From contig CAWFFH010000004.1 in NCBI GenBank assembly GCA_963815095.1, positions 96,001 through 160,000 on the forward strand: a stretch of 64,000 nt of DNA, in the 5' to 3' direction. The position numbers and the translations under genes are program-made. Source of the stretch: Candidatus Bathyarchaeota archaeon (lineage in GTDB: Archaea; Thermoproteota; Bathyarchaeia; Bathyarchaeales; Bathycorpusculaceae). This document shows, one piece after another, positions 40,474 through 53,146 of the stretch; positions within the stretch are counted from its first letter, which is position 1, and the number at the start of each line of letters is the position of its first letter. The notes beneath the pieces were generated by a model. That model worked only from the letters and a program-made list of their open reading frames with translations, searched no databases and was not told the origin of the DNA.

Positions 40474-40505
40474 CCCCTTTCATTTTATTTTTTGTTTATT
40501 TATTA
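40474..40505 (+). terminator. T-rich archaeal terminator after tuf
   Basis: CCCCTTTCATTTTATTTTTTGTTTATTT directly after the stop. Confidence 0.55.
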
Positions 40506-40667
40506 AATTATGTTTTCGAAAGAGCTCTGACTATTTAGTGTAACCTCTATTAAACACAACCTTTTCTTAAAAGATAACGTAAATTTTTTGTAGCTTGTTG
40601 TTGTATTATGGCAGTCACAAGTATTTTTATCGCGTGTTGGCAAGTGCTTTTTGTAAGGTGTGGACCA

Positions 40668-40817
40668 ATGGATCATCAAAATGGCTCAACTTGTTTAATA
40701 AAAAAGGAATCAGTAAAAGGTGAGGAAAGTTTGGATTATGTTTGCTTGAGCGATGTGCCTTTGGAAATAAGGCGAAAAGAAGCCAAAAAACCTTTGTTCC
40801 TTATTAGGTATGAGTAA
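40668..40817 (+). CDS. Small hypothetical protein (49 aa; alternative TTG start at 40731)
   Basis: TATA-like TTTTTAT upstream, AAGGTG SD before ATG, internal GGTGAGG SD before in-frame TTG. Confidence 0.45.
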   Translation: MDHQNGSTCLIKKESVKGEESLDYVCLSDVPLEIRRKEAKKPLFLIRYE

Positions 40818-40964
40818 ACAATTTAGAGTGTCTTCATACTTTTAAATTTAGCAGTTTTAGCTTTGAATCTTTTATTTTCAATTTTATTTTTTGATTATTC
40901 TTTTAGGTGGGTAGCGGAAGTAAAATAAACCTCAAGTTCTGGTTACCTAAGCAGAGTTGATCGT

Positions 40965-41696
40965 ATGTCTGGCACCGAAACGTTGGTTCCCTTCATTGGT
41001 GAAAAAAAGAAACCTGGCGAAGAACCAACCATAATTATAGATAGCCGTGAGGCAAACAGCGCTGAAAAAATTGTCAAAGGTCTAGTTGAGAAGGGCGCAA
41101 GCGTAAAAACTGAAATGCTTGAGAAAGGCGACTACATCCTCTCTGACCAATGTGCAGTTGAACGTAAAACAGTCAACGACTTTGTCTACACTCTCACCAG
41201 ACGCTACCTCTTTGAACAACTCTTTAGGTTAAAAGATGTTTACCCAAAATCCCTCATAGTCCTCGAAGGTTATATGCCAATAGTTTTCAAGTACAGCAAG
41301 ATTTCGCCGCAAGCAATCTGGGGTGCCATGTTTAACCTTGCAAAAAACGGCATCGCTATAGTCAGCACTTCTTCGTACAAAGAAACCGTTGATTTCCTGT
41401 ACACAGCTGCCAAGCAGGAGCAAATTGTGGAGAAAAGAAGCGCGGTTGTTCATGCGTTCAAAAAATGTGACACCCTATCGGATGCTCAAGTCTATTTTAT
41501 CGCCAGTTTACCTAGCATTGGACGCGAAAAGGCGACGGCTATTTTAGATTCTTATCAGACACCACTTAACGCATTGATTAACGTGGACGATTGGGAGAAA
41601 GCTGTGAATGGTTTGGGTCCAGTAATTACAAATCGGGTAAAGGATGTTTTGAGTACGCCCTACAAGGATAAGAAATGTGAAGAAATTCAGCCGTAA
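40965..41696 (+). CDS. xpf: XPF/ERCC4 structure-specific endonuclease (short form, nuclease plus HhH)
   Basis: IDSRE, GDYI, VERKT..D, LPSIG and GLG HhH motifs. Confidence 0.88.
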   Translation: MSGTETLVPFIGEKKKPGEEPTIIIDSREANSAEKIVKGLVEKGASVKTEMLEKGDYILSDQCAVERKTVNDFVYTLTRRYLFEQLFRLKDVYPKSLIVLEGYMPIVFKYSKISPQAIWGAMFNLAKNGIAIVSTSSYKETVDFLYTAAKQEQIVEKRSAVVHAFKKCDTLSDAQVYFIASLPSIGREKATAILDSYQTPLNALINVDDWEKAVNGLGPVITNRVKDVLSTPYKDKKCEEIQP

Positions 41697-41798
41697 CTTT
41701 TTCATTGTATATTAAAACAAACCTTAACCGCTAAAGTTTAAAGCCAAGCCAACATTAATTTAAGAACCCGACCAAAAACAAAGCAAATATGTTGCTAT

Positions 41799-41876
41799 GG
41801 GGCCGTCGGCTAGTTTGGTCCAGGCTTGTAGCCTCGGGCGCTATAGACCCCGGTTCAAATCCGGGCGGCCCCACCA
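41799..41876 (+). tRNA. tRNA-Pro(CGG), intronless, CCA encoded
   Basis: GGGGCCG/CGGCCCC acceptor stem; GTAGC-CTCGGGC-GCTAT anticodon arm; CCCGG-TTCAAAT-CCGGG T arm; ends ACCA. Confidence 0.95.
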
Positions 41877-42110
41877 TACTTAACCCTTTTGTGCTATTTT
41901 TCTCAAGGATTGATTGATAGGTTTTTAGATATTTATTGTGTGTGGGTTATGAAATCCATCTTAAAGTTGGCGATTCCTGTATTTGTGTTGTACTGTTGTT
42001 TCGTTAGTTTGTTGTATTGTTGCATAAGTGGTCTGTGTTTGATTGGTCCAGTGTGAATTTATATATTACGATTCATGATACGATGCATTAAGGGAGCTAA
42101 AGAGAATAAA

Positions 42111-42962
42111 ATGAAAATATTCAAGACAGCGACAATAATCTCCCTATTAACCATAGTAACGTTAGGGGGATTTTGCTCAACAACCTACGCGATTACTGGA
42201 AATAGTCATCCTGATACCACTCCTTATGTAGGTTTAGTTGTACTTTTTAGTGATCCCGCAAAGACCCATCCAATAAGCTTCAGCACAGGCATCCTCATTT
42301 CGCCAACTGTTGTTTTGACTGCAGGCCACAGCGTCATCGGCGGCGTAGCAGCAAGCGTCTGCTTTGACCAAGACCCAATAACCTATTCAATCGACGAAGA
42401 AGGACAAATGCACTACAACATCAACCTACCAGTTTACAGTGGTGTTCCAACGCCTTATCCAGAATATCAGGTCAGTTTAGAGGCGGTAGTAAAAGACAGT
42501 AAGCTTCTCCAAACAGGCGACGTCGGCTTAATCGTGCTGGACACGCCTGTTGTGGAAGTGCAGAGTTTTCCAGCACTTCCCACTGAGGGTTTGGCAGATA
42601 GTTTGCCGGTAAATAGTATTTTGCAAGTGATAGGTTACGGAGTCCAAGATCAAATTACACCCAGAAACGGCAATATCTCGACTTGGGTTGGAAGCATTAC
42701 CCGCAACTCAGCCACAGTAAACCTGCTTTCTACTAACTTCCAAGGAAGCAGTAACTACCTTAAATGCTCAGCAAATGCAGCTCAGGGAAAAGGTGGCGTT
42801 AGTTACGGTGACTCAGGAGGACCAGTCCTATACAACGATGATGGGCAAACCACCATCTTAGCAGTAAATGCATATGTTAACAACGCCAACTGTGAAGGCG
42901 TAACTTTCCATACTCGAATCGATAATCCACAAGTCCTCGGTTGGATCAAGGATTACATTTGA
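42111..42962 (+). CDS. Secreted S1 (chymotrypsin-fold) serine protease
   Basis: Signal peptide MKIFK..TTYA; triad motifs LTAGH, GDVGLI, GDSGGP. Confidence 0.9.
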   Translation: MKIFKTATIISLLTIVTLGGFCSTTYAITGNSHPDTTPYVGLVVLFSDPAKTHPISFSTGILISPTVVLTAGHSVIGGVAASVCFDQDPITYSIDEEGQMHYNINLPVYSGVPTPYPEYQVSLEAVVKDSKLLQTGDVGLIVLDTPVVEVQSFPALPTEGLADSLPVNSILQVIGYGVQDQITPRNGNISTWVGSITRNSATVNLLSTNFQGSSNYLKCSANAAQGKGGVSYGDSGGPVLYNDDGQTTILAVNAYVNNANCEGVTFHTRIDNPQVLGWIKDYI

Positions 42963-43002
42963 GTTTTCAGTAATAATTATCAAGGAATGAGAGGTGAAAT
43001 GA

Positions 43003-43059
43003 ATGAATCAAAAACGTGCAATCAAAGCAAAAGCTCCGGTGAATTGGGGCGGCTGGTAA
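43003..43059 (+). CDS. 18-aa Trp-rich micropeptide MNQKRAIKAKAPVNWGGW (candidate precursor peptide)
   Basis: GAGGTGA SD at 42991-42997, 5 nt before ATG 43003; TAA at 43057-59; hairpin downstream. Confidence 0.65.
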   Translation: MNQKRAIKAKAPVNWGGW

Positions 43060-43071
43060 ATAAACGGGTAA

Positions 43072-43100
43072 GGTGCAGGCTTTAGCACCAATTTTCTAAT
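43072..43100 (+). terminator. Short hairpin plus T-tract after the micropeptide
   Basis: GGTGC-aggcttta-GCACC followed by AATTTTCTAAT. Confidence 0.45.
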
Positions 43101-43160
43101 TTTAAATCTTTATTTTAAATTCTTAATTTACAAATACCTTGGATTCTAATTCTTTATATC

Positions 43161-44165
43161 ATGAAAGAGACTCCGCTTACCAAGAATGCGATAGGCATAA
43201 TTCATAGCGAAGGGCAATCTCCTTTAACCGAAGCTTCCAAAAAAATACTCTCAAACAGATACGACGACGGAATCCTCTGTGAAGCATTGCATTATTATGC
43301 CCAAGAAGTCCTTCCAAACGTTTTACCTATTTTTCCAGCCCTAATGGCCCTGTCCAGCGGAGCAGTAGGAACTTTCCCAGAAAACTCACAGCCGATTTCC
43401 ATCGCAATGCTGCTCATAACTTCCTCTGGGGACATCCACGATGACATTGTGGACAATTCAAAAGAAAAGTTTACAAAAAAGACTCTTTTTGGAAAATATG
43501 GTAAAGATATTTCTCTTTTGGCAGGCGATCTGCTCTTAATTCAAGGAATGACAGCACTTCAAAATGAATGCAGCAACTTATCAGCCAAGCAAGGGAAAAC
43601 CATAGCTAATTCAATTGCCTCGGCAATGCTTGAAATCGTAAAAGCAGAAGCCCTCGAGATCTCCCTGTGGCATAAACCAAACGTTACAGCCGAAGAGTTT
43701 TTTGAGGTAATCCAGTTGAAGGCGAGAGTAGCTGAGTTTCACTGTAGACTTGGCGGGATAGTTGGCGGAGGAACAATTGTAGAAATTGAAAATCTTGCAA
43801 GTTATGGCAGAACAATCGGGGTATTATCAACGATAAAAGAAGAATTTATGGATATGACGTGTTCTAGTGAGCTTAATCATCGAGTTAAACATGAATTGCC
43901 GCCTTATCCTATGCTTTGTGCAATGCAGAACAAAACATTAAATGAGAAACTCGTGAATTCCAAGAACGCCGAGTTCTCTCTTGCTGATCTTCAAGAAGTT
44001 TCAGCAACAGTGATGGGGTCTTTTGAAGTTGAAAAACTAATCTCTGGGCTTAAAGAATTTGGAAGAAAAGAATTGTTGAATAATCCGCTGTTAAAAGGAA
44101 ATGCGAAACCAAAAGAGTTAGTGGTTCTGCTTGAAGCTTTAACAGAAGAATTGGAGCTTATTTAG
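43161..44165 (+). CDS. Divergent trans-prenyltransferase-fold protein (ComQ-like candidate)
   Basis: Retains HDDIVD and LLAGD; GKRxRP replaced by LPIFP, RRG by KFT, GQ by AE, second DDxxD by EEFMD. Confidence 0.8.
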   Translation: MKETPLTKNAIGIIHSEGQSPLTEASKKILSNRYDDGILCEALHYYAQEVLPNVLPIFPALMALSSGAVGTFPENSQPISIAMLLITSSGDIHDDIVDNSKEKFTKKTLFGKYGKDISLLAGDLLLIQGMTALQNECSNLSAKQGKTIANSIASAMLEIVKAEALEISLWHKPNVTAEEFFEVIQLKARVAEFHCRLGGIVGGGTIVEIENLASYGRTIGVLSTIKEEFMDMTCSSELNHRVKHELPPYPMLCAMQNKTLNEKLVNSKNAEFSLADLQEVSATVMGSFEVEKLISGLKEFGRKELLNNPLLKGNAKPKELVVLLEALTEELELI

Positions 44166-44264
44166 TTGCTGAATTACGAATACTTATTCAATGGATAAAG
44201 TATTAATTCTTAATACTTATAATTCAATTAAACCTAGTTTAATCAGGAACCCAAAACGCTAAAC

Positions 44265-45500
44265 ATGAAAATAGTCTCTAAAAAGCTATCATCTATCCCT
44301 AAGGAAGCTTTAGTAAGCACCTTTTTGGTAGCGAACGCCTTCGTTTGGTATCTCAGCGGGTTTAGCTATTTGCAGGCTGCCACATCCTCGCATTTCGACG
44401 GAAATTCTCTGTTGCTAATAGAAGTTATCAACTTTGCAAGTTTAGTTTCATCCGCTTTTATCATTTCATCAGTTAAAAACAAATTCAAAAGTCGTCGATT
44501 CTTTCTGAAATATTGGGTCCTCGCGGGCGTTTTACTTTCTTTCTTATTTGTAGTCGTGAATTCCGCAGACTTTGCCAGTTTACTATTTTTGGCAATCATA
44601 ATTGGGGTCTATTTCGGAATTGGCATGCCCATTTGTATGGGATATTTCGCAAAAACAACTGTATCCCAAAACCGCGCTAAACTAGGCGGAATAATAATTC
44701 TTTTAATGGGTTTAGGCTATTCGCTGATTTCGATAATCGGAAGCAACGAAACTATCCTTTTGGCCGGTTCTTTGGGTGTTTTGCAAATTCTTGGCTTGAT
44801 TTCTATTTTTTCTACTAAATCTGTCGAAGGACATTCGGAGCAAAACAAACAAGTATCATATCGTTCAATAATTTCAAACAAAACTTTTCTACTCTACGCT
44901 GCTCCCTGGTTGATGTTTTCTCTAATCAACCAATTAACATTGGAGTTGAACACTAATTATTTCAGCGGCGGCACATTTCCGATCGCTTTTGGACAAAACT
45001 TTCAGCTAATCGAAAACATTTTGTCTGGTGCATCCGCGATTATCTGCGGGTTTCTAGCTGATAAAAAAGGTCGGAAACGGTTAGCGTTGGTAGGGTTTGT
45101 TCTTCTAGGAGTTGGCTATGCGTCTTTAGGGCTTTTAAACGGCAACTATTTTGCAGCTTGGTTCTATGTTTGCGTCGATGGCGTTGCCTGGGGCGCCTTC
45201 GCTATGTTGTTTTTAGTCACAATCTGGGGGGACATATCCCAAGAAAAAAGTGGCGAAAAATACTATTTTCTTGGGGTGTTGCCGTATTTATTCTCGATAT
45301 TGGCAGGGGGGTTAGCAGGAGCGTCCATTTCAGCTAATGTTAAAGAGCCTACGGTTTTCTCGTTTGCAGCCTTCTTTCTTTTCGTGGCAGTATTGCCGTT
45401 GCTTTATGCGCCAGAAACACTGCCTGATAAAATACTAAAAAATCTTGACCTAAACAGTTATGTGAATAAGGCTTTGGAAAAAGTCAAGAAAGTAACGTAA
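44265..45500 (+). CDS. MFS transporter
   Basis: About 12 TM; GFLADKKGRKR motif A; C-terminal PETL. Confidence 0.85.
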   Translation: MKIVSKKLSSIPKEALVSTFLVANAFVWYLSGFSYLQAATSSHFDGNSLLLIEVINFASLVSSAFIISSVKNKFKSRRFFLKYWVLAGVLLSFLFVVVNSADFASLLFLAIIIGVYFGIGMPICMGYFAKTTVSQNRAKLGGIIILLMGLGYSLISIIGSNETILLAGSLGVLQILGLISIFSTKSVEGHSEQNKQVSYRSIISNKTFLLYAAPWLMFSLINQLTLELNTNYFSGGTFPIAFGQNFQLIENILSGASAIICGFLADKKGRKRLALVGFVLLGVGYASLGLLNGNYFAAWFYVCVDGVAWGAFAMLFLVTIWGDISQEKSGEKYYFLGVLPYLFSILAGGLAGASISANVKEPTVFSFAAFFLFVAVLPLLYAPETLPDKILKNLDLNSYVNKALEKVKKVT

Positions 45501-45526
45501 AAACTTGACTATCTTGAATGAGTTGA

Positions 45527-45561
45527 TGTGAGTGTTGGTTAGCAGTCACAACAGCTTATAT
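45527..45561 (+). promoter_or_regulatory. Inverted repeat TGTGAGTG-N8-CAGTCACA followed by a TATA box
   Basis: Near-perfect palindrome at 45527-45550 then CTTATAT; related copy at 40595-40620. Confidence 0.5.
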
Positions 45562-45620
45562 TTGCTAAAATGATACTAAAATATAGTTTTTTGAATCGCT
45601 TGTTTAAAGGAGAAAAATTT

Positions 45621-46025
45621 ATGGTTAAAATGCAAACGACTGAAGCACATCATGAAGAACTAGTTAATGGACTCTACGAACAGATGAAGCCAATATTGGA
45701 TAAATCTGAGCAACCTATATTCATCTACTTAGATGATAACCACAAAGCCTGCAATGAAAAATTTGCTTCGATGTTAGGTTTCGCATCGCCAAAGGAATGG
45801 GCTGAAAAACAGGGTTTTCTAGAAGTTTATGTGACAGAGAAAAGCCGCGAAACTCTCTCATCAGCTTACTGGAAGGCAATGGAGAAAATGGTTGCTTCAA
45901 CAATTCCTATGACTTGGATGAAAAAAGATGGCGCAACCATAGAATCAATGATGATTCTTGTTCCCATGTTCTTCGAAGGTCACATGTTTTCCCTTCACTT
46001 CGTGACAAACATCACTAACAAATAA
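45621..46025 (+). CDS. Stand-alone PAS-domain protein
   Basis: ILDKSEQPIFI, CNEKFASMLGF, KKDG turn; AAGGAG SD before ATG 45621. Confidence 0.75.
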   Translation: MVKMQTTEAHHEELVNGLYEQMKPILDKSEQPIFIYLDDNHKACNEKFASMLGFASPKEWAEKQGFLEVYVTEKSRETLSSAYWKAMEKMVASTIPMTWMKKDGATIESMMILVPMFFEGHMFSLHFVTNITNK

Positions 46026-46100
46026 TCTGGACCAATAACTAAACTGGTATTTTTTTCCAGAATCAACATTTTTTGTTGTAAAACATTAGGTGATGAGTTT

Positions 46101-46352
46101 TTAGTTTTCCCATACAGTTAAGTTGGAAGGTTTTAGGATATTTGACGAAATAAAGTAGCATTCACTATCTAACAGTAAACTTAGATTATGTTGACTAACA
46201 AAATCTTTTATGAATACCAAGTCGCCGCTGTTTACAGAGTCTTGATCAAAAGTTAAAATAATTCCGTCTTTTCCGGTATCAAGCATCTTTACGTCAAAAC
46301 TGCAGCTTGAACCAATTTCTCTTTTAAACACCATAGCCTCAAACATCTTCAT
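46101..46352 (-). CDS. Small hypothetical protein
   Basis: 83-aa ORF with a purine-rich SD-like leader. Confidence 0.55.
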   Translation of the reverse strand: MKMFEAMVFKREIGSSCSFDVKMLDTGKDGIILTFDQDSVNSGDLVFIKDFVSQHNLSLLLDSECYFISSNILKPSNLTVWEN

Positions 46353-46583
46353 TTTTCCTTTCCCCTGTCCAAAATATGCTGCTCACTACGCCAAAAATAT
46401 CTGGAAGGGTGAATGCAAACTTGGGACTTAATATGTATAAACTTATTCACTTTTAAGGGTTCGCGTTTTTATAAGGAGAAAACCGATGTTACGACTTTAA
46501 CAGATTGTACAAAAATGATATCAAAAAGAAAGAAGTTAATTTTTAAGGGTGTTATGGGCAAACATGAATATTCAGTTTTTAAC

Positions 46584-48335
46584 CTAAGTCATTTTGAATT
46601 GTGGGAAATCAGATTTTGAAGTTTTGATTGGTAGAGTGATAGTAAATTTGTGCCTTTTCCAGTTTTGCTTTCTACGGTAATTTTGCCGCTATGAGCTTCT
46701 ACGATTCTCTTACAAATTGCCAGGTTCATTCCCATTCCTTTTGCTTTGGAGGTTACAAGCGGTGAAAAAAGTTTTGGTAAAATATGTTCTGGAATACCTG
46801 TTCCTGAGTCAGAGAAAGAAATCTCAACGTTTGAGCCTTTCACAGCGTTCATTATTTGTATTTCGCCTTTTTCAGGAGTAGCTTCTATCGCATTATTTAT
46901 TATGTGTCCAAATATTTTTTCTATTTTTTGTGTGTCTGAGAAGAATTTTAATTCATCTGTGGTTTGGTTTACAACATTTACGCGATTTGCAACCTGGATC
47001 TTTGACAACGCATTAAGTATAAGCGACTTGGGTGTGCATTGTCCAGGCTCCAAAATCAGTTCACTTGAATATTCTACGAGGCTTGTGATAATTCTGTCTG
47101 AGTCTTCAACTGCAGTGTCTATTGTTCCCAAAATCTTAATTCTATCCAATTCAGTGAGTCGATTATTATTCTTTTTCAAAAGGTAAATTCCGTTTTTTAT
47201 TCCTGATAATGGATTGCGCAAATCATGACCGATTTGTCCCGCCAGTTCACCGATTGAAGCTAACCTTTCTGCTTTAACAAGTCTTTCCTCAATATTTTTA
47301 TGCTCAGTAATATCGTGGATGATGCAAGCTAATCCGATTGATCGACCCGTTTTGCTTTGGACAACTGAACCTGAAAAAAGAACGATGCGTTTTTCTCCAG
47401 ATTTAGTTTTGAGGATTAATTCCTTATTTCTAACTATTTTTTTTGCTGCTAAATCTTCTAAGATGTCTTTACAGATATTTTCTTGGTTTTCTTCACATAA
47501 TTTTGTGATGGGTTCACCAATTAATTCATCTTTTTTGTATCCAGTAAAACTTATCAAGCGCTCATTTACCCTCGTCATTTTAGCGTTTTTATCTGCTAGA
47601 ATAAGTGAGTCAGGGATTGTAGATAGAATGTTGTCTGCAGCTAAAGCTGCGTCAAAGGTAAATAAGTCGAATTTAACAATTGAATATCCAACAAAGAAGC
47701 TGAAGAAGAGTGTTGCAACAATTCCAAAATTTGGAATGTTCATGTTGATAGAGCGGCCAATTATGTTTGTTGTTATGAATGCGGCGATGGGGATGGCGAA
47801 GCCAGCTGTAACATATTTTCGAGGTTGTGTTTGTGACGGGTCTTTTGCCCTTCGATAAAATCTGAAACATAAAATAAAAGCTAAAATCGGTAAGAGTGCT
47901 GTCCAAATGGTGGATGCTGTATAAACCCAGGTTCCTGAAGCAACATCATTATACCCCCAATATTCCATTACTGGAGGAGCATTGATGAAGTTTGTCGATA
48001 AATCAATAGCCCAAAGTGCAATTGCAGGCAAATACAAAATTAAATAGTTATATTTGTTTTTTAGCAAATTGCTTTCAGTAAAAACCAAAGCAAAATTAAG
48101 AACTAAAGCGACGAAAAAAGGCCAGATAGTGCCCATTTTATGCCAAATGAAAGCGCTTTCAAAAGTGTTTGCCGTCCACATCATAACAGTGGTAAATGAA
48201 TAAAAAAATGAAGCCAGACAAGCTAAAAAAAAAGATTTTATTAAGATTTGATTTTTGGTTTAAGGAATAAACCAATAGTCCTAGGCAAATGCATATTATG
48301 CTTGAGTATAGCGAAAGCAAAGCGAACGGATTCAT
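46584..48335 (-). CDS. Membrane sensor histidine kinase (multi-TM, HisKA_7TM-like + PAS + HisKA + HATPase) with two apparent frameshifts
   Basis: GHDLRNPL H-box, INNAIEA, DSGTGI, KGMGMNL. ATG 48335 joins the ORF if the A9 run (48225-33) is A8; the C-terminus becomes GTKFTITLP if one base is added at 46647-49. Confidence 0.85.
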
Positions 48336-50707: not shown

Positions 50708-51266
50708 CAGCTCAATACTCTACCTACGATTTCTCACCAAAAGCAGTCAGTTAAACGTTTTCTTCATACGCTTGAGTATGGGCTTTAACCCTGAATTTTA
50801 TGAGTTTTTGAACTCAATTTTAAAATTTGCGATGGAACTGAGCAATATTTTGAACATTTTTTGGGTTTCTTGTTTGCTCATTTTACGTATCGTCTTCTAT
50901 TCCTTCTAAATCGAATTCCTCATTTATTTTTTCTGTTTCGTCTTACTCTTATATAGTCTCTTCTAAATCTTCATTCTTGTTTTGTTCTTCAAAAGCTTTC
51001 TTTCGTTGTTCGCTCTCTGTTTTCTGTTGGTTTGGCTATATTTTTGACTCTGGGATTGTTTCGGGCATAAGGAATAGACTGCAAGATTTTAAAATCTATA
51101 GCAAATCTCAGGTTGTCTTTTCTTTGCTGTCCTCTGGTTTTTTCCTATTGGAGGTGAGACGTTAAACGTTAGTTGCTGAATGTTGAAGAATGACCCAATA
51201 TATGGCTCATTTCCGTTGACTATTCTTAAATATAACTGCATAAACTACATTGGTAAGGTCGGAATC

Positions 51267-51668
51267 ATGGGAGAGCAAAAGTTAAAGGTAACTTTGCTTA
51301 CAGGTCGCACAATTGAGCAAGGAGTCGGCAAAGAGAAAGGTAAAGCCTCAAAAGAGTACTTTGATGCTTGTTCAATGTGCTACATGGACGCAGACGACAT
51401 GAAGAAGCTTGGCGTAAAAACTAACACTAACATTTTAGTATCTACCCCTGACGGCTCGGTCGTTCTTAAAGCCGTAAAATACCCTCGTTCCGCAACTCCT
51501 GGTTTAATTTACATTCCTTATGGACCATGGGCGAATGCTATCTGTAGCAACAAAACCACCAGCATTGGTATGCCATCGTTTAAAGGCACTCCAGCTGAAG
51601 TTGAAGCGGCACCTAACCTGCCAGTTTTAACTATTGAAGAGCTTCTGAAGAAAGAATTTGGAAGGTAA
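51267..51668 (+). CDS. fwdD: Formylmethanofuran dehydrogenase subunit D
   Basis: LLTGRTIEQG, IPYGPWAN, GMPSFKG. Confidence 0.92.
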   Translation: MGEQKLKVTLLTGRTIEQGVGKEKGKASKEYFDACSMCYMDADDMKKLGVKTNTNILVSTPDGSVVLKAVKYPRSATPGLIYIPYGPWANAICSNKTTSIGMPSFKGTPAEVEAAPNLPVLTIEELLKKEFGR

Positions 51669-51673
51669 CAAAA

Positions 51674-53146
51674 ATGACGATAATTAATTCTGTAACGTGT
51701 CCAATTTGCGGTTGCTTATGTGACGATATCGAAGTCACAGTTGAAAATAATGAAGTTGTTAAAGTGAAAAACGGATGCGCTATCTGTGAGTCAAAATTTT
51801 TAGGTTTCTGCGGCGAACACAGAGTCCAAACACCGCTAATGAGAAAAGACGGAAAACTTGTGCCAGTTTCCATGAATGAGGCAGTTCATGCTGCTGCCGA
51901 AGTTTTGGCAAATGCTACTTATCCAATTCTTTATGGTTGGAGCTCAACTAGTTCAGAGGCTCAACGTGTCGGAGTAGAATTAACTGAAGAAGTCGGCGGT
52001 GTAATGGATAACACAGCGGTTGTCTGTCATGGGCCATCTATTTTGGGTGTTCAAGAAGTAGGCATTCCAACCTGCACTTTAGGACAGATTCGTCACCGAG
52101 CAGACTTAATTATTTACTGGGGCTGCGACCCGTGGAGCGCACATCCCAGACACCTTGAAAGATATACCAGCTTCACCGAAGGCCGCTTTGAGAAAAGCGA
52201 ATGGAAAGCATACATGCAAAAACTCAAATCTCAAGCTGGCCAAAAGAAAATGCAGAGCGCTATGCGAATTGAAGTTTCTAACCCTCAGATAAGACCTCAA
52301 ACATGTACTATTCCAGGCATGCCTCAAGCTATGAATAAAGAGGGACGAAAACTAATCGTTGTCGATGTAAGGAAAACCATGTCTGCTGAAATGGCTGATT
52401 ATTTTATTCAAGTAGAACCCAACAAAGACTACGAATTAATGCAGGCTATCCGAGTTTTAGTCACAGATGGAGAACTCGACGTAGACACGGTTGCAGGTGT
52501 TCCTGTAGAATACCTAAAACAAGTCGCTGATGCCTTGGTAAACTGCGAGTTTGGCGTAATTTTCTTCGGCATGGGCTTAACTCAAACCGCAGGCAAATTC
52601 CGCAACATCGAAGTTGCAATCCAACTGGTTCGCGACTTAAATGCAAAAACAAAATTCACAATCATGCCTATGAGGGGCCATTTCAACGTTACAGGTGCAG
52701 ATGTGGTTTCAGCTTGGCAAAGCGGCTACCCATACGGAGTTGACTTCTCATTGGGTTATCCACGCTATAATCCAGGCGAAACAACCTGTACAGACGTACT
52801 TTTCCGTGAAGAAAACGATGCTACATTGGTTATAGCCGCAGATCCGGGTTCAAACTTCCCCAAAAAAGCTGTTCAAAACATGGTTAAACACCCATTAATT
52901 GTGATTGACCCACACATGAATGCAACCTCAATGATAGGTGACATTGTATTTCCAACTGCGTTTGTCGGCATAGAAGTTGAAGGAACCGCATACCGCATGG
53001 ATCATGTGCCGTTGCCGCTGAAAAAGGTAGTTGAACCACCAAAAGGTATATTCTCAGATGAAGAAATACTAACAAAAATCTTAGCAGAGGTTAAAGCTAT
53101 AAAATCTAAAAAGATCAAAAAAGCCGTTAAGAAAACGGAGGCTTAA
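51674..53146 (+). CDS. fwdB: Formylmethanofuran dehydrogenase subunit B (Cys ligand)
   Basis: CPICGCLCDD, VCHGP, PMRGHFNV, EGTAYRMD. Confidence 0.94.
   Translation: MTIINSVTCPICGCLCDDIEVTVENNEVVKVKNGCAICESKFLGFCGEHRVQTPLMRKDGKLVPVSMNEAVHAAAEVLANATYPILYGWSSTSSEAQRVGVELTEEVGGVMDNTAVVCHGPSILGVQEVGIPTCTLGQIRHRADLIIYWGCDPWSAHPRHLERYTSFTEGRFEKSEWKAYMQKLKSQAGQKKMQSAMRIEVSNPQIRPQTCTIPGMPQAMNKEGRKLIVVDVRKTMSAEMADYFIQVEPNKDYELMQAIRVLVTDGELDVDTVAGVPVEYLKQVADALVNCEFGVIFFGMGLTQTAGKFRNIEVAIQLVRDLNAKTKFTIMPMRGHFNVTGADVVSAWQSGYPYGVDFSLGYPRYNPGETTCTDVLFREENDATLVIAADPGSNFPKKAVQNMVKHPLIVIDPHMNATSMIGDIVFPTAFVGIEVEGTAYRMDHVPLPLKKVVEPPKGIFSDEEILTKILAEVKAIKSKKIKKAVKKTEA

Follow-up and report, generated by a model that had tools for sequence, protein, structure and literature searches.

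A conserved micropeptide gene beside a divergent isoprenyl-diphosphate-synthase-fold enzyme in Bathyarchaeia: a candidate archaeal peptide-prenylation module

We analysed a stretch of 64,000 nt from Candidatus Bathyarchaeota archaeon (GCA_963815095.1, contig CAWFFH010000004.1, positions 96,001–160,000, forward strand), hereafter the window, and within it a locus at 42111–48335. The locus encodes an enzyme with the trans-isoprenyl diphosphate synthase (trans-IDS) fold, preceded by a micro open reading frame (micro-ORF) and followed by a major facilitator superfamily (MFS) transporter gene. At the level of genes the linkage of micro-ORF and enzyme is solid, and the module is widespread in Bathyarchaeia, reaching a second class of the phylum. 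By analogy with ComQ and PalQ, we hold it to be somewhat better than an even bet that the enzyme prenylates a Trp of this very short ribosomal peptide, which would then be exported and, in the window's lineage, trimmed. An earlier reading of this DNA without database searches (the original prediction) had proposed that the locus makes, exports, trims and possibly senses a Trp-prenylated peptide. The gene-level linkage proved larger than it had reported, and the sensing part found no support.

A conserved micro-ORF linked to the enzyme gene

Genes in the window were called from an ORF listing and Pfam scans. The micro-ORF was read directly from the sequence, as standard ORF listing omits it for its size (<20 codons). 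The encoded peptide is basic in its N-terminal half and ends A-P-V-N-W-G-G-W. The micro-ORF recurs in three close relatives (loci L001, L002 and L042) with three synonymous changes, in Asn, Arg and Ala codons, and a single Val-to-Ala replacement. L001 and L002 are contigs of two Bathyarchaeota metagenome-assembled genomes, whose enzymes are respectively 77% and 65% identical to that of the window. Between the window and these two contigs, the intergenic stretch around the micro-ORF is 89% identical column-wise, and the hairpin stem 3′ of the micro-ORF is retained in both, with one G-C to G-T change in L001.

A first search of genome contigs with the enzyme as query retrieved only two true relatives, L003 being an unrelated bacterial synthase. 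The class-wide enzyme search, which covered 401 genomes at E ≤ 1e-30, detected matches in 112 of them, mainly in families f1 (81/103), f5 (16/18) and f4 (7/11). Twelve of the 30 returned loci have a micro-ORF of the same kind, at a distance of 70–270 nt upstream of the enzyme gene, and in all 12 the heptamer GAGGTGA, a Shine–Dalgarno (SD) sequence, precedes an ATG, GTG or TTG start by 5–7 nt. An antisense micro-ORF just past the enzyme stop codon, divergent from the MFS gene, recurs among loci without an upstream one. Of 20 more distant loci, belonging to other families and orders, 13 share this antisense arrangement; so do several loci from a second class of the phylum, where the peptides read roughly M-K-x-Y-N-P-T-x-[VI]-R-x-W-x-P. 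In three loci of that class (L085, L091 and L092) the antisense micro-ORF is doubled in tandem, encoding identical or nearly identical peptides (...Y-N-P-T-x-V-R-x-W-x-P). Overall, the family micropeptides have 10–23 residues, with a Lys/Arg-rich N-terminus, usually followed by [VI]-R or K-P and then by a Trp 0–4 residues from the end.

The linkage was quantified in 63 loci, the window being left out, by comparing the 350-nt flanks of the enzyme gene with the remaining sequence. A strict filter (11–22 residues, at least four Lys or Arg in the first 12, Trp in the last three), set before the antisense group was seen, retrieved 36 micro-ORFs in 50.7 kb of flanks and 24 in the other 227.8 kb. The expected number in the flanks was 5.3, which gives a Poisson P of 2e-18, a value that overstates the case because the loci are related. 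At least one micro-ORF passed the strict filter in 30 of the 63 loci, and 45 were positive in a looser automatic scan. Ten more loci (L022, L023, L025, L028, L033, L054, L056, L060, L067 and L085) have a micro-ORF recognizable by eye that the regular expression missed. The original prediction had named enzyme homologues without adjacent Trp micropeptides as the outcome that would count against it; the opposite was found, as most of the 63 loci carry one. In the window's own genome (2.69 Mb), 197 ORF starts pass the strict filter, 19 of them also with an SD-like 4-mer, and the only two filter-passing ORFs that resemble the family are those adjoining the two enzyme paralogues.

By these counts, the micro-ORF is more than a product of chance. 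A chance ORF, a small RNA and an opposite-strand by-product of a T-rich terminator were each considered, and all three were rejected on the conserved start, SD and stop, the [VI]-R...W pattern and the synonymous differences. The substitution patterns show that selection acts on the micropeptide at the amino-acid level. From the SD, the synonymous changes and the matching cores described below, we infer that the micropeptide is translated and functional.

Considered alone, the window would also suit a cis-acting Trp-sensing leader of the trpL or TnaC kind, governing read-through into the enzyme and MFS genes, as its micro-ORF, with two Trp codons, lies upstream on the same strand and a hairpin and T-run come after it. 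Across the family this arrangement is in the minority: the looser scan counted 39 downstream-antisense and 11 upstream-sense micro-ORFs, against five downstream-sense and three upstream-antisense ones as controls, and a micro-ORF lying mostly downstream in antisense cannot act there as a leader. An Rfam scan of 41700–46600 matched no family apart from one tRNA, and lineage-specific cores that match between two copies are unexpected for a peptide acting in the ribosome tunnel. Attenuation of this kind is therefore very improbable.

Two precursors with one core

Seven protease-type loci contain both a long upstream-sense and a short antisense micro-ORF. In all six with two full micro-ORFs (L038, L040, L043, L045, L046 and L047), the final 4–5 residues are identical between the two peptides, and two to three of the 4–5 codons in these shared cores differ synonymously. 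The cores themselves vary from locus to locus, for example F-G-G-W, S-S-G-W-V, T-A-G-W-L, V-V-G-W-L and T-G-G-W-Y. Identical cores written in different codons point to selection on the C-terminal peptide itself, and gene conversion, considered as a source of the matching cores, was rejected on these codon differences. The block of identity begins directly after the conserved Arg of the short form, which suggests that the boundary between leader and core lies at this residue.

In the seventh locus, L044, the two peptides share five residues (S-A-G-W-P) and then continue into different tails. This locus (genome G362) has two enzyme–MFS pairs in tandem and no protease; its first pair is accompanied by both the upstream-sense and the antisense micro-ORF.

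Composition of the module

To compare the cassette, the window proteins were run by tblastn on 12 wide loci. Nine of these (L001, L002, L038, L039, L042, L043, L045, L046 and L047) keep the order protease–micro-ORF–enzyme–MFS, with identities of 35–77% for the enzyme, 37–84% for the MFS protein and 48–75% for the protease, the low ends belonging to the six more distant loci. An MFS homologue follows the enzyme gene in every wide locus with sequence on that side; the same holds for 18 of the 20 more distant loci and for 8 of the 14 outside the class. The genes flanking the cassette, encoding an ERCC4 nuclease, EF-1 alpha, the PAS ORF, an 83-residue ORF and an M50 protease, are common only to the close relatives L001, L002 and L042.

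Judged by gene order, the core module is the enzyme, the micropeptide and the MFS transporter, joined by the protease only in sub-clades. The protease has a hydrophobic, signal-like N-terminus and readable TAGHS, DVGLIVL and GDSGGP motifs, and its gene ends 40 nt upstream of the peptide gene. Sequence searches of solved structures (E ≤ 0.01) found no relative of either the protease or the MFS transporter. The original prediction had suggested testing co-occurrence with MFS, protease and histidine kinase genes: the MFS gene is conserved, the protease gene in sub-clades only, and the kinase gene is not conserved. With enzyme, peptide and MFS conserved as a module and the protease present in the window's sub-clades, its scheme of making, exporting and trimming a peptide stands as a gene-level association, while the chemistry remains an analogy.

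Four PF00348 proteins are encoded in the window's genome: a canonical pair scoring 214.6 and 184.3 bits, and a divergent pair scoring 64.6 and 57.4 bits. One divergent copy belongs to a second module on contig C6, where the enzyme paralogue (42045–43037, minus strand) is followed by an MFS gene (40493–41848, minus strand) and is divergent from leuS (43227–46109, plus strand). An antisense micro-ORF of 17 codons starts at 41984 (plus strand) in the gap between the enzyme and MFS genes; it has an SD, and its peptide has a Lys-rich N-terminus and ends F-A-W. The linkage to leuS is repeated in L014–L016, L018, L020, L021, L027, L029 and L030. In the enzyme tree, the antisense-peptide arrangement is scattered throughout and the protease-type arrangement is found in two sub-clades. 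The leuS-linked antisense form is the older, ancestral form of the module.

Two further groups of loci depart from this composition. In the close relative G370 (L042/L017; EF-1 alpha 97% identical), the enzyme gene is interrupted by nine stops and the MFS gene is fragmented; beside them the protease gene and micro-ORF are intact, and other enzyme copies are present elsewhere in that genome. In family f59 of the phylum sample (L081, L082, L088 and L089), the first motif of the enzyme relatives is followed by an insertion, and neither an MFS gene nor a micro-ORF was found near these four genes, which may represent a different sub-family.

Fold, phylogeny and motifs of the enzyme

Among NCBIfam families the enzyme matched IdsA (IdsA_Meth) best, with 87.8 bits where the cut-off is 468, and all 13 matches lay far below their cut-offs. 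An AlphaFold2 model (pLDDT 90.4) retrieved trans-IDSs as its top Foldseek matches (TM 0.77–0.81), with the indole prenyltransferase Ord1 at rank 30 (TM 0.70). By sequence, the best solved relative is the Pyrococcus geranylgeranyl diphosphate (GGPP) synthase 1wy0, with 63.8 bits for the single sequence and 127.2 bits with the family profile; the corresponding scores for Ord1 are 45 and 83.7 bits. In the ESM Atlas, only generic 'polyprenyl synthetase' clusters were retrieved, mostly from Bathyarchaeota. A quick IQ-TREE phylogeny of 31 sequences, which leaves out L023 (same place as L044), L021 (truncated) and L012 and L017 (internal stops, no ORF of 220 aa), placed the family in one clade (SH-aLRT 100), apart from the two canonical synthases of the genome.

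Motif columns were read from a MAFFT alignment of 62 family sequences, with 1wy0 aligned for reference. The first Asp-rich motif, H-D-D-x-x-D, is present in all 62 (H-D-D-I-V-D in the window), as is, after it, a Lys or Arg where canonical synthases have the first Arg of R-R-G. In the K-T region, Lys is maintained in 56 sequences and replaced by Arg in six, and the Thr is replaced by Ala. The second motif is retained as [DE]-[DE]-x-x-D (E-E-F-M-D in the window), preceded by Arg in 48 of 62. Where canonical synthases have F-Q before the second motif, the family has [IT]-[LI], and the canonical GGKR loop is shortened, its Lys gone family-wide. The residue before the region I Pro is Arg in 30, Phe in 15 and His in 14 sequences (Phe in the window). 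The enzyme therefore lacks the G-G-K-R-x-R-P loop and the F-Q-x-x-D-D-x-x-D motif of canonical synthases, as well as the score of a curated family. The lost residues, in the region I loop and F-Q, presumably belong to the isopentenyl diphosphate (IPP) site, going by farnesyl diphosphate synthase structures. To call the enzyme degenerate, as in the original prediction, is an overstatement: both acidic motifs are kept family-wide, and the alterations concern the GGKR loop and FQ.

The simplest alternative is an ordinary geranylgeranyl or longer-chain diphosphate synthase beside micro-ORFs that arose by chance. Public sources call the relatives 'geranylgeranyl pyrophosphate synthase', and the best solved relative is a GGPP synthase. 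However, the NCBIfam scores fall far below every equivalog cut-off, the family forms a clade of its own in which region I and FQ are altered, two canonical synthases are already encoded in the genome, and the micro-ORF enrichment, the SD and the synonymous-change patterns are not those of chance. We regard this as the least probable of the explanations weighed here, bordering on the negligible.

With ComQ-type enzymes, the family shares the all-alpha trans-IDS fold, the D-D-x-x-D first motif and an adjacent gene for a peptide with a near-C-terminal Trp. Two hallmarks of those enzymes are given in the portions available of the respective sources: a pseudo-second motif N-D-x-x-x (bioRxiv 10.64898/2026.08.29.745113) and a Gln, conserved immediately before the second motif, for which binding of the indole N-H has been proposed (PMC13290415). 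Since both are absent here, the enzyme is not filed as a member of the ComQ family. Compared with the published descriptions of ComQ, PalQ and StheQ, it may work like a ComQ-type enzyme and probably arose separately from an archaeal synthase.

Absence of a conserved sensor

The original prediction extended to sensing of the exported peptide by the adjacent multi-transmembrane kinase, with involvement of the PAS protein, which would complete a quorum-sensing circuit like ComQXPA. In the window, a seven-transmembrane (7TM)-type kinase with a PAS domain lies convergent 1.1 kb beyond the MFS gene, and L046, from another genus, has a convergent kinase gene ~1.4 kb from its MFS gene. However, the three closest relatives (L001, L002 and L042) have no kinase at that place; in L001 and L002, an ORF of 147–151 residues near it is, as we take it by eye, flavodoxin-like. 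A kinase gene occurs within the ~20-kb stretch in three of the 12 wide loci (L040, L045 and L046). With 26 HATPase_c matches in the 2.69-Mb genome, about two kinase neighbours would be expected by chance among 12 loci. The ancestral leuS-linked module has no kinase, and in the window the kinase gene appears interrupted: its first membrane segment (48159–48335) is read in a different frame from the rest, with the switch beside a run of nine T near 48226–48234; the cause is either a genuine frameshift or a sequencing error in the homopolymer.

The conserved neighbouring kinase of ComQXPA systems was thus not found among the 12 wide loci, where a response regulator was not searched for. Judged by gene neighbourhood, the module does not include the PAS and kinase genes, which the nearest relatives lack or which fail to persist outside that group, and a full ComQXPA-like circuit is highly improbable.

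Proposed mechanism and its main competitor

In the mechanism that we favour, a ribosomal micropeptide, composed of a Lys/Arg-rich leader and a short Trp core (...N-W-G-G-W in the window), would be the acceptor substrate of the neighbouring synthase-fold enzyme. The enzyme, which appears to keep the Mg/allylic-diphosphate machinery and to have lost chain-elongation features, would move a prenyl group, probably C15–C20, onto the indole, as ComQ, PalQ and StheQ do. The two canonical synthases of the genome could supply the prenyl donors. The MFS transporter would then export the lipidated peptide or its core and, in the window's sub-clade, the secreted S1 protease would trim the longer leader outside the cell.

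More tentatively, Thermoproteota may hold an old, vertically kept system of this kind. An independently evolved enzyme would prenylate the near-C-terminal Trp, and the tetra- or pentapeptide after the conserved Arg would be the mature, lineage-specific lipopeptide, exported by the MFS transporter and possibly serving as an archaeal cell-cell signal or a membrane-active agent.

Several observations weigh against prenylation. Among close relatives the peptide is more conserved than the enzyme, unlike the hypervariable ComX. Trp is not universal, as Tyr occupies the aromatic position of the antisense micro-ORFs in L034, L035 and L051 and L052 has no aromatic residue there. No micro-ORF was seen at L062, L082, L088 and L089, nor at the truncated L084. 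In the enzyme, the first position of the second motif is Asp in 44, Glu in 12, Asn in five and Ala in one of the 62 sequences, which differs from the N-D-x-x-x of ComQ-type enzymes. The column at the place of the canonical Gln, whose position depends on the alignment, has Ile (33), Thr (13), Ser (5), Leu (3) and Ala (3) as its five commonest residues, Gln not being among them. Half of the family retains the Arg before the conserved Pro of region I. The second motif has retained its acidic character, compatible with conventional metal-dependent chemistry on a different acceptor. MFS transporters, moreover, usually carry small molecules. Prediction of an enzyme–peptide complex is neutral in this respect: it gave a score of 0.03 against a mark of 0.32, for an 18-residue peptide that is shorter than the calibration range of the tool.

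These points leave room for a real, trans-acting micropeptide that is not prenylated. Such a peptide could be a regulator or accessory subunit, acting on the enzyme or on the transporter; alternatively, it could be secreted, cationic and unmodified. The isoprenoid made or modified by the enzyme would be the transporter's cargo. The linkage and the amino-acid-level selection fit any trans-acting partner, and so do the two preserved acidic motifs, the lack of both bacterial peptide-prenyltransferase hallmarks, Gln and N-D, and the four loci with Tyr or no aromatic residue in place of Trp. Nevertheless, the near-C-terminal Trp, often after Gly, is the most conserved feature of the peptides and a known acceptor context of PalQ. 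The peptide is also too short and too polar for a membrane subunit, and lineage-specific cores matching between two precursors, together with a dedicated secreted protease, are typical of processed peptides. We consider this explanation unlikely, although it is the most serious competitor of Trp prenylation.

Relationship to known systems

The characterized trans-IDS-like peptide prenyltransferases all act on a Trp of a peptide encoded next door, according to the accessible parts of three reports (PMC13290415, PMC10853753 and bioRxiv 10.64898/2026.08.29.745113). As far as those texts describe, PalQ requires Trp at the C-terminus, with a preference for G-W or G-G-W (PMC13290415), and StheQ modifies the Trp second from the C-terminus (bioRxiv 10.64898/2026.08.29.745113).

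ComQ–ComX (with ComP–ComA) of Bacillus subtilis and other Firmicutes resembles the archaeal module in having an IDS-superfamily enzyme beside a small gene for a peptide with a near-C-terminal Trp, in the preserved first Asp-rich motif and in a product expected to be exported and shortened. It differs in host and partners: the archaeal module has an MFS partner and no conserved kinase or regulator, its enzyme lacks the N-D pseudo-motif and the Gln, and its peptide is not hypervariable among close relatives. The ComX precursor has ~55 residues, against 10–23 for the archaeal precursors; relative to the bacterial precursors, the archaeal ones are shorter by a factor of three to five. A 2014 census placed comQXPA-like loci in Firmicutes only, in the text available of PMC4008528.

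PalQ–PalX of Paenibacillus alvei is alike in its trans-IDS-like, homodimer-type fold and in its acceptor, a very C-terminal Trp favoured after Gly in the passages of the PalQ report that were available; the window peptide ends G-G-W. The leader of PalX is an NHLP domain of ~70 residues, and its cluster includes a kinase gene (PMC10853753, from the part accessible). The archaeal precursor of the window has 18 residues in all and no NHLP-type leader, the whole family falling within 10–23. By sequence the archaeal enzyme is nearest to archaeal GGPP synthases, PalQ being compared here by description. StheQ–StheX of Sphaerobacter thermophilus is a non-Firmicutes case of a ComQ-like enzyme whose peptide is encoded alongside, and many archaeal peptides end G-W-x, in keeping with its acceptor position. 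StheX is longer (69 residues), and StheQ has N-D-x-x-D, with no metal at that site in the available description, where the archaeal family has [DE]-[DE]-x-x-D.

Ord1 (PDB 9V4G–9V4J), an all-alpha indole prenyltransferase, has the same fold and was retrieved by both profile and Foldseek. It acts on free tryptophan and has the conserved Gln, as stated in the accessible text of PMC13290415, and canonical synthases outscore it against the archaeal enzyme. IdsA and GGPP synthases share the fold, the first Asp-rich motif, the K-T Lys and the acidic second motif. The archaeal family differs from them as a separate clade with a shortened GGKR loop, F-Q changed to [IT]-[LI]-R and the K-T Thr changed to Ala, and its enzymes are paired with an MFS gene and a micro-ORF. 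Literature searching found no archaeal description, in agreement with the original prediction, which knew of none; similarity networks in the supplements of PMC10853753 and PMC13290415 may contain archaeal clusters.

Layout of the locus

ORF listing and Pfam recovered every gene of the original prediction where it had placed them (Table 1). A tRNA-Pro (CGG) gene is located at 41799–41876 (plus strand), ~235 nt 5′ of the protease start. Further downstream, at 51180–53146 (plus strand), two ORFs resemble what we take to be subunits of the formylmethanofuran-dehydrogenase type or of molybdopterin oxidoreductases; the ORF at 51180–51668 is kept in L002 at the same relative place. The sequencing-run listing for this genome comprises five soil-metagenome DNA rows from two studies, with shares of 0.05–0.28 and no RNA run among them.

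Table 1. Annotated features of the locus, in window coordinates
Feature	Position	Strand	Evidence
S1 protease ORF	42075–42962, likely start 42111	+	Pfam PF00089 Trypsin, 35.3 bits
SD (GAGGTGA) of the micro-ORF	42991–42997	+	5 nt 5′ of ATG
Micro-ORF, 18 codons + TAA; proposed precursor peptide	43003–43059	+	Sequence reading and conservation in relatives
Terminator-like hairpin (GGTGC...GCACC) with T-rich tail	43072–43099	+	Consensus scan alone
trans-IDS-fold enzyme	43161–44165	+	PF00348, 56.9 bits
MFS transporter; proposed product exporter	44265–45500	+	MFS_1, 47.5 bits
PAS-like ORF	45570–46025	+	PAS_9, 24.1 bits (under cut-off of 27)
Histidine kinase, convergent	46589–48184	-	HATPase_c, 75 bits; PAS_9, 57.9 bits; HisKA_7TM, 26.1 bits (under its cut-off)

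Implications

Prenylation of peptide Trp by synthase-fold enzymes is otherwise described from a few bacteria (ComQ, PalQ, ChrPC and StheQ), and by analogy the module looks like the first archaeal counterpart of bacterial lipid-tagged peptide systems. An unannotated family of micro-genes recasts a routinely misnamed 'GGPP synthase' as a candidate peptide-modifying system, and the case shows how genes of <30 codons slip past annotation. Should the proposed chemistry fail, the trio of enzyme, micropeptide and transporter would still be an ancient conserved module in need of explanation. If it holds, the indole would have been prenylated by a second, convergent solution, and a leader followed by G-W would offer a very small natural substrate tag for enzymatic lipidation. 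Bathyarchaeia are among the most abundant sediment and soil lineages. The module would then give archaea their first ribosomal lipopeptide pathway and first ComX-like chemistry, with precursors among the shortest known (10–23 residues) and a lipopeptide product that is possibly a signal or an antimicrobial.

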